Shown piece after piece: positions 7,141 through 61,766 of a stretch of DNA of 64,000 nt. The stretch is from Octopus sinensis (taxonomy: Eukaryota). A program made the position numbers and the translations under genes. Where the stretch lies: NCBI RefSeq assembly GCF_006345805.1, contig NC_043011.1, forward strand, positions 11,966,001 to 12,030,000. The letters are read 5' to 3'. Each line of letters opens with the position of its first letter. The first letter of the stretch is position 1. The notes beneath the pieces were generated by a model, which searched no databases, was not told the origin of the DNA, and was given only the letters and a program-made list of their open reading frames with translations.

Positions 7141-7186
<46 letters not shown>

Positions 7187-7188
7187 AA

Positions 7189-7222
<34 letters not shown>

Positions 7223-7395
7223 TCACATATACGACGGGCTTCTTTCAGTTTCCGTCTACTAAATCCACTCACAAGGCTTTGGCCGGCCCGAGGCTATAGT
7301 AGAAGACACTTGCCCAGGGTGCCACGCAGTGGGACTGAACCCGGAACCATGTGGTTGGTAAGCAAGTTACTTACCACACAGCCACTCCTGCACCT
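6940..7395 (-). mobile_element. tRNA-derived SINE family A (CORE-like ccttgggcaagtg)
   Basis: Full copy with internal microsatellite and tail gctccagcatggccgcagtcaaatgactgaaacaagtaaaag; more than 15 full or partial copies in the window. Confidence 0.9.
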
Positions 7396-8128
7396 ACGTG
7401 TGGTCTTTAAAATATATTGAAGGAAAAAAGGAATAGAAATGAAAATAAAATGAAAATAAATCGTTTATAAGATGAATAAGATAGGAAAAAGTAGGAGTGG
7501 AAAACTACCTAAGGTACCATAACGTGGATGTTCTGTTAGAACAAACTATACTGTGGTAGATACCACAAGAGACACTCTCATACTGACTTTTGGTGCAAAA
7601 TACATACTTGCTTATACCACTAGCGAGAAGACAAATCCTCCACCACCTCCATCGCCGAGAGCACCAGATCACGTGATTTCGACCTTCCTTGGTCTCGTAA
7701 ATGATGGGCGCTCGACTACTAGAGACAGCAGCGACTCATTTATTTCTCCGCCAGCGATTTATAGAAAAGCAGTGCCAGAACATGCGCTTGTGTCGCGAAG
7801 AAGAAAGGAAAGAAAGATGGAAGACTGCAAAAAGAAAAAGCAAGAACAAAAACAAAAACATCCCAGAAACACGAGGAATTCGTCGTCGGACGACATAAAA
7901 GGAAATACAGCAAATTTTTAAACAGGAATACTTTAAGGGACAGAGTTGTAAGATGCAAACATTTTGTCAGATGACTTTAGACAATAATACCAAGAGGAAA
8001 AAAATCATAGCTGAATGTTGTCCAACGCAAATGTCTTTTTTAAGCAAGAGAATATAGGAGACAGATTGGTACAAAGTTATATGGGATGATGACACGAAAA
8101 TTTCAACTTGGTGGAACAATGGCTTTAA

Positions 8129-13867: not shown

Positions 13868-13966
13868 AAATTAAAGTCAAAAAGAGGGTGAAAAAGTTGG
13901 ATATTAATTTAATAACATCAATTTAAACACCAGTGGCTTAGCGCATAAAAGACTGAGATTCAGTAA

Positions 13967-14530
13967 ATATTAATACACAAATATGAGAGAGAATCCACTA
14001 TGTGGACACTCTTGTGCTAGATATAGATCCGCAAAGGGACTCAACCACTAAGAATTGTTCTCAAGAAAAAATTTTAGTACACTAAGAACGTAATCGAGCA
14101 GGACAAATGAAAAATAACGAAAATATAGATTAACCCCATACAATTGTTTCACCGTTAATAAATTATGTAATTTTACTTACATAAATATCATCGGATCATC
14201 GGTGGAGTACGTCATAAAATATAATTTGTCGAACTGCACGCTGTATATTAACACGAGGTCAGAGACCCGAGCAATTCGGCCGATTATATTCACAGTTATA
14301 TTCAATCCAAGGATATTTATGTAAGTAAAATTACATAATTTATTAACGGTGAAACAATTGTATGGGGTTAATCTATATTTTCGTTATTTTTCATTTGTCC
14401 TGCTCGCTTACGTTCTTGGTGTGCCAAATTATTTCTTGAGAACAATTCTTAGTGGTTGAGTCCCTTTGCGGATCTATATCTAGCGTAAGAGTGTCCACAT
14501 AGTGGATTCTCTTTCATAGTTGTGTATTGA
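13967..14530. mobile_element. Fold-back Penelope-like element (about 220-bp inverted arms) next to (TA)n
   Basis: About 13967-14189 is the imperfect reverse complement of about 14312-14530; contains a hammerhead motif. Confidence 0.75.
14134..14207 (-). ncRNA. Type-I hammerhead ribozyme (U4C core variant)
   Basis: CTCCA-CCGATGA-tCCG...CGGt-GAAACAATTGTA-TGGGG: stem I, long stem II, palindromic stem III, GUA triplet. Confidence 0.7.
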
Positions 14531-21181: not shown

Positions 21182-21445
21182 GTATATATGTGTATATATA
21201 TATACATATATATATTTTTTTTTTTTTTTTTTTTTTGTTTTTCCAGTTTCAGCTCTTGAGCTGTGGCCATGCTGGGGCACCGCCATTGTGGTGAATGAGT
21301 ACAGCAGGGATCACCACCCCCTGCCGGAGCCTCGTAGAGCTTTTTTAGGTGTTTTCGCTCAATAAACACACACATATATATATATATATGTATATATATA
21401 TATGTGTATATATATATACATATACACATATATATATATATACAC

Positions 21446-21548
<103 letters not shown>

Positions 21549-21756
21549 ATGAAATGGATAAATGAATTATCTTGTTACGGATTATTCAAAATTTAACCGA
21601 TACCTGTGTAGCAAAAATCACAACAGAAAAGACACGGTTGAGGTTACGACCATGGGGTTTCGCCCCCGTGCTTTAGCGCGGATAATTGAAGTTTTATATA
21701 TTTAGTGAAGGGAAGAAATGGAGCCGAACGAAGATTCTACAAAATTCCTTTTTATT

Positions 21757-21842
21757 ATTTTCTACACATGTTTCAAAGGCTGCAAATTCCCAAATTCGGA
21801 TTGAATAAGGAGACCATTCTGCAGCTTTCTCTTCAGGAAAAT
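21757..21842 (-). ncRNA. Type-I hammerhead ribozyme, identical copy on the opposite strand
   Basis: Reverse complement of 21933-22018 in the left arm. Confidence 0.8.
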
Positions 21843-21932
21843 CCAGGAATTTAAAATTTCCAAACAAATGCGCAGCAAGCGTTTTGTTCGAAAAGCTTGC
21901 TGCGCATTTGTTTGGAAATTTTAAATTCCTGG

Positions 21933-22018
21933 ATTTTCCTGAAGAGAAAGCTGCAGAATGGTCTCCTTATTCAATCCGAATTTGGGAATTTGCAGCCTTT
22001 GAAACATGTGTAGAAAAT
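21933..22018 (+). ncRNA. Type-I hammerhead ribozyme, canonical core
   Basis: ATTTTC-CTGAAGA-GAAAGCTGCAGA...TTTGCAGCCTTT-GAAACATGTGTA-GAAAAT. Confidence 0.8.
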
Positions 22019-22073
22019 AATAAAAAGGAATTTTGTAGAATCTTCGTTCGGCTCCATTTCTTCCCTTCACTAA

Positions 22074-22107
<34 letters not shown>

Positions 22108-22926: not shown

Positions 22927-23301
22927 AAAGTTTGTCTAGCATTACATTACCCAATATATTCTTCATTTTAGAGAGAGAATTTATTCATGAGAAAGAAAAA
23001 AAAAACAGTAATATTAATTTGAAATAGTAAATACCATCTTCAATTGTCCGTTTTTCCCAGAAGATCGAGAAACACTGTACAAGCTCCTTCGCAACAACAA
23101 GTCGTCTTGGCAAACTAAGTCGTGAACCCCAAAATGGTAACATTGCATTTGGTCCTCAGATCACTAAAATAATTTGCTTAGTATATTCTTCCACCAAAAA
23201 CATTGTGTTTCATTTAATTAAAGGAAGCTTGATTATTAAATACAAACTTATATCCTCTAAATGCATTAAATGGATAGGATATAAACAAAAATAAAAAAGA
23301 A

Positions 23302-23715
23302 TGTGGTGTTGTGTGGTAAGTAGCTTGTTTACCAACCACATGGTTCCGAGTTCAGTCCCACTGCGTGGCACCTTAGGCAAGTGTCTTCTACTATAGCCTC
23401 GGGCCGACCAAAGCCTTGTGAGTGGATTTGGTAGACGGAAACTGAAAGAAGCCTGTCGTGTATGTGTATATATATATATATGCGTGTGTGTGTTTGTGTG
23501 TCTGTGTTTGTCCCCCTAGCATTGCTTGACAACCGATGCTGGTGTGTTTATGTCCCCGTTACTTAGCGGTTCAGCAAAAGAGACCGATAGAATAAGTACT
23601 GGGCTTACAAAAAGAATAAGTCCCGGGGTTGAGTTGCTCGATTAAAGTCGATGCTCCAGCATGGCCGCAGTCAAATGACTGAAACAAGTAAAAGATAAAG
23701 ATAAAGATAGAAAGA
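23302..23715 (+). mobile_element. SINE family A
   Basis: Matches the other family copies. Confidence 0.9.
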
Positions 23716-24822: not shown

Positions 24823-25430
24823 TACAAGATAAGAAAATGGAGAAATACATCTAAATCAAATATCAATTACCAGATAATACTCAATCACATACTTTATTAA
24901 ACCACCACATAAGAGACTGTAGGGTTAAATATAAAAAGCAGAACAAATCAGTGTACATAAAGGAATGTACATAAAACAGTGTACATAAAAACATAAAAGA
25001 GTAATGTTGTATAATAAGTAGAATATATATAAAAGAGAATATAAATATAAGTATAGGTTACATCTTACAGCTGTTTCGGCCATGTAGATAAGTATGTCTC
25101 ATTTTACCAATATTAGCCCTTTATGGTTACACTGATTTGTTCTGCTTTTTATATTTAACCCTACAGTCTCTTATGTGGTGGTTTAATAAAGTATGTGATT
25201 GAGTATTATCTGGTAATTGATATTTGATTTAGATGTATTTCTCCATTTTCTTATCTTGTATTAGTAATTTGTGGTAAATCATTTTACCTTTGCCCATATA
25301 ATACAGTAAATGAATTGGTTGCATCGCAATCATTAACATTTATGTATTAACTTTGTTGGGTACTTCACTAGCAGTATTTTGGATATATGTTATCCCATGG
25401 AGGGTTGCATTTACAACCCCTATCTCAATT

Positions 25431-25432
<2 letters not shown>
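24823..25432. mobile_element. Fold-back Penelope-like element between (TA)n tracts
   Basis: About 130-bp inverted arms (about 24823-24956 and 25128-25260); minus-strand GCC-GAAACAGCTGTA hammerhead half in the spacer. Confidence 0.7.
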
Positions 25433-30083: not shown

Positions 30084-30492
30084 TGGCACAGGAGTGGCTG
30101 TGTGGTAAGTAGCTTGCTAACCAACCACATGGTTCCGGGTTTAGTTCCACTGCATGACATCTTGGGCGAGTGTCTTCTACTATAGCCTCGGGCCGACCAA
30201 AGCCTTGTGAGTGGATTTGGTAGACGGAAACTGAAAGAAGCCCGTCGTATAAATGTAGATATATATATGTATGTATGCGTGTGTGTGTTTGTGTGTCTGT
30301 GTTTGTCCCCCTAGCATTGCCTGACAACCGATGCTGGTGTATTTACGTCCCCGTCACTTAGCGGTTCGGCAAAAGAGACCGATAGAATAAGTACTGGGCT
30401 TACAAAGAATAAGTCCCGGGGTCAATTTGCTCGACTAAAGGCAGTGCTCCAGCATGGCCGCAGTCAAAATGACTGAAACAAGTAAAAGAGAA
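30084..30492 (+). mobile_element. SINE family A
   Basis: Family match. Confidence 0.9.
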
Positions 30493-30873
30493 AAAAAAAG
30501 AAAATGTACTTACACCTCACTCCTATTATGTTTAAATCTTTGTTATATCCAAAACAATAAAATTCACAAATTCATTTTTATCAGCAATTCCAGCCGAGTG
30601 TCCAACTTTGGGACATGGAAGGATACTGATTTCCGTATTACTTCTTTCATTGTGAGAGAGACTTTTGTCTATGCAAACATTATAACCAAAATTTGATCAT
30701 GACTCTTCTATGTAAGGCACATATTTTGGCTGGTAGAGTTACAAGTCCTCAGCAGAATGCCTATCCTGTTTGTGACGCGAGTATGTTTTGTGCATTAATT
30801 TTAACTTTATGTTGTAATATGATTATTTCCTCCACAATTACATATTTTTGTGGTGTATTCATATAAGTATCTG

Positions 30874-34966: not shown

Positions 34967-35133
34967 TAGGCGCAGGAGTGGCTGTATGTTAAGTAGCTTA
35001 CTTTTCAACCACATGGTTCTGGGTTCATTCCCACTGCATGGCACTTTGGGCAAGTGTCTTCTACTATACCCTCGGGCCGACCAAAGCCTCGTGAGTGGAT
35101 TTGGTAGACGGAAACTGAAAGAAGCCCGTCGTA

Positions 35134-35184
<51 letters not shown>

Positions 35185-35398
35185 ATATGTTTGTGTGTCT
35201 GTGTTTGTTCCCCGCCCAACATCGCTTGACAACCGATGGTGGTGTGTTTATGTCCCCGTAACTTAGCGGTTCAGAAAAAGAGGCCAATAGAATAAGTACT
35301 AGGCTTACAAAGAATAAGTCCTGAGGTCGATTTGCTCGACTAAAGGTGGTGCTCCAGCATGGCTGCAGTCAAATGACTGAAACAAGTAAAAGAGTAAA
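34967..35398 (+). mobile_element. SINE family A
   Basis: Family match. Confidence 0.9.
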
Positions 35399-35947
35399 CT
35401 TCCTAGAGTAGAAAAATCATAAGACACTTTACAAAATGTGCAGGATATCTATGTACAACATGCTTCGACTACAAAAGGCAAAAAGTGCTCTATATCAAGG
35501 TGCAATTCCTTGCATCCTTTGATCATATAAATATTGTAAATAAATATGAAACGGTCACTGATGGTCGAATTGTTAATAGTGATATAAAGTGAAAAAACAC
35601 TCCCAACAAGAGATCAAAACCAAGTTGTAGACATGGTTTACGAGTAACTTACCTCTACAATTTTCAGCAGTCATAATATTGATTAAATCTAGATTATAAG
35701 TAAATTCCGTAGGTACTGGAACCACCGAGGAATTAAATGGCTCATCTTATCTCATAGTTCAAATGAGTAAGACACCAACAGTTTAGCTTTTACAAAGGAA
35801 CTAATAATGAATTACCATGAATACACCAGTTTTAGGAAAAGGTGTACAGCATCATGATGTAAGAAGTAACCAAAAGGGTTGGTAACAAAAAAGGGCATCC
35901 AGCTGTAAAACACTGTCTCAAAAAAAACAAAAAAACCTATGCAAACT

Positions 35948-44931: not shown

Positions 44932-45142
44932 TACTCTTTACTCTTTTACTTGTTTCAGTCATTTGACTGCGGCCATGCTGGAGCACTGCCCTTTAGTCGA
45001 GTAAATCGACCCCAGGACTTATTCTTTGTAAGCCTAGTACTTATTCTATCGGCCTCTTTTGCCGAACCGCTAAGTTACGGGGACGTAAACACACCAGCAT
45101 CGGTTGTCAAGCAATGGTGGGGGGACAGACACACAAACATAT

Positions 45143-45177
<35 letters not shown>

Positions 45178-45341
45178 AGACGGGCTTCTTTCAGTTTCCG
45201 TCTACCAAATCCTCTCACAAGGCTTTGGTCAGCCCAAGGCTATAGTAGAAGACACTAGCCCAAGGTGTCATGCAGTGGGAATGAACCCGGAACCATGTGG
45301 TTGGTAAGCAAGCTACTTACCACACAGTCACTCCTGCGCCT
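44932..45341 (-). mobile_element. SINE family A
   Basis: Family match. Confidence 0.9.
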
Positions 45342-45414
45342 ACATATTATTTTATAATTTATAATTTCATACTTGGAACCACGGAAAACAAACTAAAATC
45401 TTTACTGTCTAGAC

Positions 45415-46570: not shown

Positions 46571-46915
46571 AGGCGTAGGAGTGGCTGTGTGGTAAGTAAC
46601 TTGCTTACCAACCACATAGTTCCGGGTTCAGTCCCACTGCGTGGCACCTTGGGCAAGTGTCTTCTACTATAGCCTCAGGCCGACCAAAGCATTGTGAGTG
46701 GATTTGGTAGACGGAAACTGAAAGAATCCCGTCGTATATATGTATATGTGTGTGCATATGTTTGTGTGTCTGTGCTTGTCCCCCCAACATCGCTTGACAA
46801 CCGGTGCTGGTGTGTTTACGTCCCCGTAACTTAGCGGTTCGGCAAAAGACACCGATAGAATAAGTACTAGGCTTACAAAGAATAAGTCCTGGGGTCGATT
46901 TGCTCGACTAAAGGC
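46571..46915 (+). mobile_element. SINE family A, tail truncated by an RTE 3' UTR fragment
   Basis: Family match up to cgactaaaggcg. Confidence 0.85.
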
Positions 46916-47721
46916 GTGTGCTTAACGTGCCACCGGCACAAAGGCCAGCTTGTTGCTCTGGCAACGATCTCACTCGTATGGTACTGTTAGCGCTCCACTA
47001 GCAACGGATGCCAGTCACCGAGTTTGATTTTGACTTCGATTTTCACTTGCTTCAACTGGTCTTCGTAAGCAGAGTTTAGTGTCCAATGAAGAAAAGGCAC
47101 GCATAAGTGGACTGGTTACCCCCTAGCATAGGCCACGAGGTTATGGTCACACTTGCACTTCGGTTGATAATGATGACTGTTAGTTCAATGGTCAGAGAAA
47201 ATTGCTTATTATACCTTCGCATTCTTTTATACGTTTCAGCCCTAAGGCTATGGCCATGCTAGGGCACCACATTGTGGATAATGTACCTTAATGCGTTACG
47301 GTTAGGGCTGATTGATCTAGGGTTGATGTACTGACCTCATTTTAAAGCTTTTTCTCAAATTTACCATTGATTACCTGCATCAGCTGGATGATATGAGGCA
47401 CATATTAACAGATCAACTTGCTTTATACATACCATTAGTGAATCACAAACTAACTTTGAATGTAACAACAGAATTCTGAGAGTAACATTTGCGGATGTAC
47501 ATAGCAACTCCACCATTGCTTCTTTTTTGTTCTTGCTTGTACAAAATACAATAAACTTCAGTATGTGTATCTCTACATGGGAAAGTGGACATTATGATGA
47601 TGTAGGCGCAGGTATAACTACTTCCAAACCATGTAGTATCAGGTTCAGTCGTACACCGTGGACATCTTAAGCAAATGTCTTCTACTACAACCCCATGCCA
47701 ACCCAAGCCTTATAGATAGGT

Positions 47722-50290: not shown

Positions 50291-50417
50291 TTCAGATGTA
50301 CATATACATCCTCGGAATAAATAAAACCCAAATCTTTCAATTTTCTTTTAAAACATAGATGCATATGTATGTGTGCGTATATATAATAAAAAAAATGTGC
50401 CAAAAGGTAGACTTGAA

Positions 50418-50830
50418 AGGAGTGGCTGTGAGGTAAGTAGCTTGTTTACCAACCACATGGTTCCGGGTTCAGTCTCACTGTGTGGCACCTTGGGCAAGTG
50501 TCTTCTACTGTAGCCTTGGGCCGACCAAGGCCTTGTGAGTGGATTTGGTAGACGGAAACTGAAAGAAGCCCGTCGTATATATGTATATATGTGTATGTAT
50601 GTGTGCGTGTATGTTTGTGTGTCTGTGTTTGCCCCATCCAACATCGCTTGAGAACCGATGCTGGTGTGTTTATGTCCCCGTCACTTAGCAGTTCGGCAAA
50701 AGAGGCCAATAGAATAAGTACTGGGCTTACAAAGAATAAGTCCCGGGGTCGAGTTGCTCGATTAAAGGCGGTGCTCCAGCATGGCCGCAGTCAAATGACT
50801 GAAACAAGTAAAAGAGTAAAGAGAGAGAGT
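50418..50830 (+). mobile_element. SINE family A
   Basis: Family match; empty site visible at about 48850-48865. Confidence 0.9.
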
Positions 50831-55134: not shown

Positions 55135-55928
55135 TATTTAATGTGCACAGTATAAAGATACAAGCTACTAAGGGTTTCTTGCTATGAAGACAAGTGTCTA
55201 AGCAGGTCTTTTATAACACACCCTATGTCTCCAAACAATCTCCTGGCTCAGAGCACATGATCTGATCTATTTGAAAATCAGGATGCTGCAAGATGTTATG
55301 CAAACCACCAATCTTCTTTCCAGTACATCGACAAAATTAAAGCCACTAAGCTGGCTAGCCATGTATGGGGTTTGAAGACCATGACAAATAATCAAATGGA
55401 GAATCATAGAGAAATCCATGCCATATGCAAACGGATCTAAAAATGCATCTTATGCATAACTGAAAGATTGCACATTCTTTTTAGCTCTAAGAATTTTACT
55501 GCACTACTTAATTCCAGATAACAAAATTTTCATCAAATGCAAGATTATGAACAAATTTATTTTGATGAACTGGAGGTAACAACCCTTTCTGAAATGAGCA
55601 GCTGTCTCACAGACCTTGGACCCCTCTCTGTTGAATTATTTTCTACTAGTTTAATTACAGTTTCTACAGTCAAAGGGCACATAACTCTAATTTTTTTCTT
55701 TCCTTTCCTTTTTTGTTTTTATTCACCTATCCACTTTTTTTGCAACAACCTTCTTGTAATTTCTTTACCAGCATCCTGATTTTCAAATAGATCAGACCAT
55801 GTGCTCAGAGCCTGATATTAGGTTGGAGACAAAGGGCATAAAATTTAAAAAAACCTACCTAGACATATGTCTTCACAGCAAGAAACTATTAGTATGTTGT
55901 ATCTTTATACTGAATACATTAAATGATA
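55133..55928. mobile_element. Old fold-back/MITE-like element with about 155-bp imperfect inverted termini
   Basis: 55133-55288 aligns to the reverse complement of 55769-55928. Confidence 0.6.
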
Positions 55929-56228: not shown

Positions 56229-56384
56229 GATATTTATCTCTTTATACTGGATGGAGAACTTTCTTTGTTGATCTCACCTTCATAAAACTGTAAACTATAT
56301 CTATATACATATATATATAGTAAACTATATCTCTCTCTCTATATATATATAGTAAACTATATCTATATATATATATATATATAG

Positions 56385-56710
56385 GTTATAAAATGAGATA
56401 GGGGTTGAAAATTCAACCCACCAATTATCCTTGTTAATGCCTCATTTATACCTGCCTTTATGGCTTATAGGTTAAATGAGGTATGACTGTCCTCACTGCC
56501 GAAACAGCTGTCAGTTTTGATTTATTTGCATATTATATTTGAAAATTTTTTACTTATATCTCTTTATCTTTTTACTATTACTGTATATCTCATTTCATTT
56601 TATGTATTGCCTTTACTCATATGTAATGGTGTATTAAAGTATGGATTGAGTATCATCGGATAGTTGATGTTTTACTGATTTAAGTATATTTCTCCATTCT
56701 CTAATTTCGT

Positions 56711-56712
<2 letters not shown>
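56385..56712 (+). mobile_element. Penelope-like pLTR fragment between (TA)n tracts
   Basis: TGCC-GAAACAGCTGTC; ends resemble those of the 24823-25432 element. Confidence 0.55.
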
Positions 56713-61336: not shown

Positions 61337-61702
61337 TACTCTCTTTTACTCCTTTACATGTTTCAGCACCGCCTTTAGTCGAGCAAATCGACCCGGGACT
61401 TATTCTTTGTAAGCCTAATACTTATTCTATCGGTCTGTTTTGCCGAACCGCTAAGTTACGGGGACGTAAACACAACAGTGGTGTTGGGGGGACAAACACA
61501 GACACACAAACACACACACATATATATATATACATATACGACAGGCTTCTTTCAGTTTCCGTCTACCAAATCCACTCACAAGGCTTTGGTCGGCCCGAGG
61601 CTATAGTAGAAGACACTTGCCCAAGGTGCCACGCAGTGGGACTGAACCTGGAACCATGTGGTTGGTAAGCAAGCTACTTACCACACAGCCACTCCTGCGC
61701 CT
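61337..61702 (-). mobile_element. SINE family A
   Basis: Family match. Confidence 0.9.
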
Positions 61703-61766
61703 ATATATATATTTCACTGATGAGGTCCTTACAAAATTCCTTGTACTGACAGTTTTGGTTCTTATA

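Follow-up and report, generated by a model that had tools for sequence, protein, structure and literature searches.

Origin of a ribozyme-bearing fold-back in Octopus sinensis: a Penelope-like family with two fixed termini

The perfect fold-back at positions 21695-22080 of the window (the whole 64,000-nucleotide stretch of Octopus sinensis DNA that was analysed) is almost certainly a truncated Penelope-like element (PLE), the product of a head-to-head insertion of the element's ribozyme-bearing 3' end; the locus itself is an ordinary dead stump. The copies of its parent family end at two fixed termini within (TA)n tracts, and head-to-head copies join one end of each kind at junctions that vary from copy to copy. 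Taken as a whole, these insertions are probably best explained as PLE 3' ends with two unequal termini produced by two copying events, and we favour, with slightly less assurance, twin priming on either side of a break in a (TA)n tract as the way in which this came about.

Structure of the fold-back locus

The two arms (21695-21880 and 21895-22080) are exact reverse complements at 186 of 186 positions around a 14-nt loop, as the initial annotation of this DNA had reported, and their symmetry extends neither outward nor inward, stopping sharply at both ends. Folded as RNA, the fold-back reaches -333 kcal/mol (z = -52 against 100 shuffles). It had been described as lying between (TA)n tracts, which is true of the right side only: the right arm adjoins its tract (22074-22089) directly, whereas the left arm is separated from the left tract (21374-21544), the insertion target, by 150 bp more of element sequence (21545-21694, minus strand). 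This one-sided tail has terminus site 2 at its outer end and, where the element is full-length, continues into the 5' leader of the ORF. The long arm (21695-21880) is a 5'-truncated pseudo-LTR that runs in minus-strand sense through site 1 into the tail, and the short arm (21878-22080, plus strand) is a 5'-truncated pseudo-LTR that reaches terminus site 1, its exact end falling anywhere in 22072-22080 where AT microhomology with the target blurs it. What appears as the loop (21881-21894) is ordinary plus-strand sense sequence of the element, belonging to the plus arm only; that arm begins at 21878, AGC (21878-21880) being common to both arms as microhomology at the head-to-head junction, and the contigs of other copies run on upstream from this point. 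The total insertion comprises 536 bp, differs from the commonest letters of the family at 2 of 179 columns, and has two variants in common between its arms. Since the 23-mer spanning the junction occurs once in the genome and other copies invert at other points, the fold-back was made at insertion. There is no credible ORF at the locus, in agreement with the initial annotation: five ATG frames of 47-103 aa overlap 21545-22080, and four of the five run into simple repeats.

Our own motif scan finds only two type I hammerhead motifs in the 64-kb window, one per arm (21757-21842, minus strand; 21933-22018, plus strand, with a predicted cut after A22012). Each combines a 6-bp stem I, the core CUGAAGA / GAAA / GUA, a long stem II and a 2-bp stem III. 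A canonical hammerhead had been claimed for each strand, and both motifs are indeed present, but stem II forms 11 of 12 pairs, with an A21949 x C21997 mismatch and a closing G-U, rather than the full 12. A search of Rfam with the motif gave no match at the gathering score, and the lone motif folds freely at -16.7 kcal/mol versus -14.6 kcal/mol when constrained (z = -0.48), so that the hammerhead is not its minimum-energy structure. The copies nevertheless keep the core, as the initial annotation would have it: 1.2% of core cells differ among 101 copies versus 2.7-3.6% for the stems and loop, and the corresponding values in 26 older copies are 2.9% and 8-10%. The stems are kept mostly by one-sided G-U/A-U changes, two-sided changes being almost absent. 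The loop of stem III is self-complementary, allowing an 8-bp self-duplex, and is a perfect palindrome in 12 of the 101 copies. The hammerhead is a passenger of the pseudo-LTR and is predicted to need a partner in the same orientation, as a dimer through stem III; in a read-through transcript of the fold-back locus, it would be locked in the rod.

The parent family and its protein

A search of the genome with the arm gave at least 51 matches (the best 40 of 1998 candidates being scored), at least 44 of them near full length and 97-100% identical. The exact 23-mer of the hammerhead core, used for the genomic copy count, occurs 70 times; these matches were merged into 57 loci, each examined in full. 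Long copies continue from the arm upstream through a 3'UTR into an ORF, and the full-length layout is pseudo-LTR, tail, leader, ORF, 3'UTR, pseudo-LTR and tail, with a monomer of ~3.64 kb. The earlier identification of a young, ribozyme-bearing, Penelope-related retroelement in (TA)n is borne out; its description as non-autonomous is not supported, the same sequence being the 3' end of copies with a long reverse transcriptase (RT) and endonuclease ORF. One copy (L104) has an open 902-aa ORF encoding RT and GIY-YIG domains, and its comparison with another (L033) gives dN/dS values of 0.16 for the RT and 0.22 for the nuclease, with 0.72 and 1.13 in two inserts, of which the former is an N-rich linker. 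The parent family is autonomous, and its ORF is under purifying selection. Mobilisation in trans by a linker-bearing Hydra family is conceivable, but the selection on the family's own nuclease speaks against it.

Among 7999 candidates scored, 113 homologues of the protein were found, including a close named homologue from Argonauta. The YRDD motif is invariant over 96 homologues except for its R, and the residues Y, Y, G, R, H, E and N of the C-terminal domain are kept in 52 of 52 sequences. The protein model (pLDDT 80) contains two disordered inserts; its best fold matches are telomerase RTs (E = 3e-8), and for the C-terminal domain each of the ten best-scoring folds is a GIY-YIG nuclease, with weak scores (E = 0.19-0.57). 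No match was returned by a Pfam search with the ORF and 11 aligned proteins, or by a sequence search of the protein against solved structures. Family sequence is present in contigs from four DNA runs and from four possibly-RNA runs, whose RNA status is uncertain.

The traits of endonuclease-bearing PLEs are all in evidence: pseudo-LTRs in partial tandem or inverted, 5' truncation, a tail at one end, here of 150 nt and not 30-40, and a hammerhead in the pseudo-LTR. The protein has the Hydra motifs SDKT (DKT for DKG) and CNLC..E..N..CPH and is without CCHH, and its RT motifs agree with those of the Hydra sequences in the supplement rows of PMC8557442, as compared by eye. The RWK motif retains RW, with K replaced by L at a position where the nearest homologues carry R or M. 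The CxCX5C linker, which is found in 65 of the 67 homologues extending into the nuclease, is absent from 15 of 15 copies read (16 loci tried) and is replaced by ~135 disordered N/S/D-rich residues. The family is therefore filed as Hydra-like with a lost linker, a placement by motifs for which the reference clades were compared by eye. Nematis-type identity was considered and rejected: the Nematis nuclease rows of the PMC8557442 supplement differ, and the description of Hydra fits. A second Hydra family in the genome (L147-L191) is very abundant and young, with an intact CxCX5C linker and a tail of ~65 nt; its hammerhead-like core reads CCGAAGA, not CUGANGA, in L147 and L148.

Paired ends, variable junctions and the origin of inverted copies

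Two termini account for nearly all copies of the fold-back's family: site 1 follows the ribozyme cut site at a distance of 60 nt, and site 2 lies another 150 nt on. Both sites are AT-rich, resembling the target, and the motif TTCAYTAAAYATAT is common to them inside the element. The ends lie within (TA)n in 48 of 48 true site-1 cases (50 were flagged, of which two were removed as run-ons) and in 38 of 39 site-2 cases. The 57 young loci include 36 head-to-head copies with both ends visible, and 34 of these combine site 1 with site 2; the others are L023, with site 1 at both ends, and L089, which is unclear, so that mixed pairs number 34 of 35 (p = 1e-9 under an expectation of 0.5). Single-arm copies account for 19 loci, nine ending at site 1 and ten at site 2, and among them is counted L080, which has an inner inversion without a second end; L091 (complex) and L095 (at a contig end) were left unclassed. 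Older loci chosen by their RT region number 14, with eight head-to-head copies, all eight mixed. In the second Hydra family, chosen by endonuclease matches, 13 of 13 opposite-strand pairs are mixed (among 150 nuclease matches). In both families together, 55 of 57 head-to-head cases are mixed, as assigned by hand from alignment tables in which second arms shorter than 28 bp would be missed. The only insertion with site 1 at both ends (L023:1100-1740) has ~48 nt of unique host flank inverted on both sides, a result to be expected of self-priming or of a chimera. In L091 (1180-2899), a 50-nt fragment of the tail occurs three times, with a period of ~833 nt, after the junction.

The junction point is different in each of the 36 head-to-head young loci. 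Four young copies (L006, L009, L075 and L087) have arms without common sequence, and some arms lie wholly inside the tail. In the 34 junctions scored (L077 and L082, which contain extra segments, were left out), 16 are without inserted bases and 18 have intervening bases by exact match, which are partly substitutions near the junction. An overlap of 2-6 nt is found in 10 of the 16 junctions without inserted bases, in excess of the 17% expected for random joins; microhomology is not the rule, given the 18 junctions with intervening bases. Eight variants in 6 of 29 loci, the fold-back locus included, are common to both arms and found nowhere else, as would be expected if one RNA is copied twice, but against twin priming, such private variants could also come from gene conversion between the arms or from polishing.

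The steps of nicking, priming and joining, as we infer them, would begin with the element's endonuclease nicking both strands of a (TA)n tract, each freed end then priming its own cDNA on the element's RNA, one from site 1 and the other from site 2, where the short AT-alternating stretch at each site could pair with the nicked target. At the fold-back, both cDNAs would have halted early, neither getting farther than 120-134 nt upstream of the cut; the site-1 cDNA would have paired by its 3' end, over the 3 nt AGC, with the site-2 cDNA, and fill-in would then have yielded two inverted arms, just one of them flanked by the tail. Anchored at site 1, the loop-bearing strand goes on in sense orientation into the tail, a stretch for which the site-2 cDNA is needed as template. 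In 79 of 91 cases the arm begins upstream of the ribozyme cut, which suggests that uncut RNA is mostly the template, although the selection of loci for an intact core biases the count in that direction. There is no pile-up of arm starts at the cut, with 1 of 91 within 5 nt of it. A different accumulation was observed, 32 of 91 arm 5' ends lying 120-180 nt upstream of the cut (21832-21892 on the scale of the plus arm), in a stretch of small hairpins, and it may mark either the 5' end of the RNA or a roadblock to the RT.

Of the other ways to obtain such insertions from the same element, self-priming, in which a cDNA or antisense RNA folds on a short palindrome and copies itself (PMC3846280), would account for the small natural hairpin at the junction (AGC...GCT, with a 14-nt loop), for the identity of the arms with their two common variants, and for L023 as a case of copying into the flank. 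We nevertheless regard it as unlikely. The loop-bearing strand is anchored at site 1, so self-folding would copy host flank and not the tail; self-priming cannot give arms without common sequence, so the four young copies of that kind favour two cDNAs; and it offers no reason for one end per site in 34 of 36 cases, the end rule in two families favouring twin priming. The explanation could be partly saved by assuming an antisense RNA that begins at site 2, but in ten single-arm copies site 2 serves as a normal priming end. Quite unlikely, too, is a single priming event leading to a tandem or circular DNA intermediate that is then resolved when the endonuclease makes staggered cuts, one at site 1 and one at site 2 (PMC8557442): one-sided tails follow from it directly, and both sites are AT-rich and target-like, but a stagger of 150 nt is long, and the independent 5' truncation of both arms and the arms wholly inside the tail are left unexplained.

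The initial annotation saw in the palindrome a young, non-autonomous, ambisense ribozyme retroelement moving as a unit, a mobile system of its own. Its youth, perfect arms, ORF-less locus and conserved core would all suit such a unit, but the evidence from the other copies makes the idea highly improbable, and as a family the ambisense unit is already refuted: the junction is found once in the genome, the other inverted copies each break elsewhere, and long copies run straight from this sequence, the 3' end of a coding PLE, into the RT-endonuclease ORF. Even the perfect arms are unremarkable, since 49 arm-only differences in 3783 columns give a chance of ~10% of none in 175, and perfect arms are thus expected in about 10% of such young copies. 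Least probable of all is a read chimera or assembly artefact. No bridging contig was found among the short-read contigs listed, which carries no weight, and the symmetry stops at a biological terminus without including the flanks, one side bears a tail that ends at the family's second terminus, and dozens of loci follow the same grammar with other junctions.

Twin priming, the preferred reading, leads to a broader proposal that we offer tentatively: Hydra-type PLEs may insert only by twin priming at two sites, with one of two duplicated AT-rich start signals on the same RNA allotted to each side of the (TA)n break, and with RNA-DNA pairing at these start sites, not a zinc finger, picking the target. 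If true, the inverted pseudo-LTR and the one-sided tail would be explained in one step, and (TA)n targeting would survive the total loss of the linker zinc finger that is credited with recognising (TA)n, for which the family offers a natural loss-of-linker case in the study of zinc-finger-directed microsatellite targeting. With a 150-nt tail that can be scored readily and dozens of copies at 98% identity, the family provides a countable rule and exact start sites.

Neighbouring elements and known systems

The initial annotation related the fold-back to elements at about 14.0, 25.0 and 56.5 kb of the window, but these have no detectable sequence in common with it, and the three neighbours are not one system. 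Copies of the 14.0-kb family are arrayed head to tail in units of 525-537 nt, as in L207 (three units, 1117-2589) and L208 (two units, 630-1491), and every unit has a full hammerhead and lacks a long ORF. The hammerhead loop III reads AATT, the ends are paired in PLE style within (TA)n, and the tail measures ~95 nt. The hammerhead core of the copy in the window (13870-14530) is mutated, and another copy (L137) has two long ends, which speaks against twin priming. This family is a retrozyme-like parasite of PLE machinery and a better candidate than the fold-back for the idea of the initial annotation. The 25.0-kb element (24825-25432) has a tail of 171 nt and is missing the 5' half of its hammerhead, and overlapping copies tie it to a Hydra nuclease; the 56.5-kb element (56384-56712) is its relative at 78% identity, and the two probably represent another PLE group of Hydra type. 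In this group, to which L120, L196 and L197 also belong, the stem II region of the hammerhead spans ~110 nt, ~2 kb of 3'UTR lies behind the Hydra nuclease, and each of the 7 inverted copies seen has one short and one long end, in a query biased to long ends. The window also contains an abundant SINE-like repeat with an internal microsatellite, in both orientations (7185-7401, 23296-23706, 30085-30499, 34969-35404, 45131-45347, 46572-46966, 50413-50826 and 61492-61708), and a region (55267-55518) with weak tblastn matches (E ~0.01) to Hydra nuclease that is possibly an old PLE remnant.

The head-to-head architecture of truncated PLEs is already known; what sets the present case apart is a new Hydra-like family that has lost its linker and has a long tail, together with a strict end rule and (TA)n targeting without the linker zinc finger. 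LINE-1 twin priming likewise primes from two target strands and joins the products by microhomology, but its second priming takes place internally, at variable positions, and duplicates little, unlike in the fold-back family, whose 3' end is copied twice because the second priming occurs at a fixed site. Our literature search on twin priming or two-ended initiation in PLEs found no such model; Arkhipova 2006 and Evgen'ev and Arkhipova 2005 may discuss one.

The closest relatives belong to the Hydra clade, which includes Hydra-1_Obim of Octopus bimaculoides (Craig et al. 2021, PMC8557442). As described there, they resemble the fold-back family in GIY-YIG, in DKT, in CxxC and CxH around the catalytic E and N, in the absence of CCHH, and in the hammerhead of the 3' repeat, the (TA)n targets and the 5'-truncated inverted copy at the head of the element. 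The family described here differs by lacking CxCX5C, by having RWL versus RWK, and by its size (3.6 kb versus <3 kb) and its tail (150 nt versus 30-40); the hammerhead sequence of Hydra-1_Obim, in its supplement row, is also unlike that of the fold-back family. The relevant text of PMC8557442 states that the tail is often at one end only, and names the origin of the inverted repeats and one-sided tail of PLEs as open. In the portion available to us, the 2026 repeat annotation of Octopus vulgaris records 31 Penelope-like families with recent activity but gives no such particulars (PMC13282606).

Poseidon of Anolis carolinensis (PAc; Frangieh et al. 2024, PMC11167929) cuts and extends both strands in vitro, a finding that lends outside support to twin priming, and it resembles the fold-back family in its two initiation sites bounding the tail, its AT-rich targets and its uncut RNA template. 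The start sites of PAc lie in the ORF and are not homologous to the target, whereas here both are upstream of the ORF, in AT-alternating letters that match (TA)n; inverted insertions receive no explanation in the available text of that study. The Penelope elements of Adineta vaga (Arkhipova et al. 2013, PMC3846280) have head-to-head pseudo-LTRs with a tail on one, microhomology joints and an asparagine-rich insert between RT and endonuclease, all as here, but they are attributed there to self-priming on an antisense template, whereas the present census favours two independent cDNAs. Truncated PLEs with head-to-head hammerheads, on opposite strands and 100-700 bp apart, are described in PMC4209133, and the fold-back motif resembles the dimer-dependent, weakly active PLE hammerheads of that report in its short stem III and self-complementary loop. 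Non-LTR retrozymes (Cervera and de la Pena 2020, PMC7229834; Li et al. 2026, 10.64898/2026.07.22.740005) share with the fold-back a non-coding stretch, a type I hammerhead and a short stem III, but as reported they are arranged head-to-tail without an ORF, in contrast to the head-to-head copies of a coding element found here, and the 14.0-kb neighbour fits their description better than the fold-back does.
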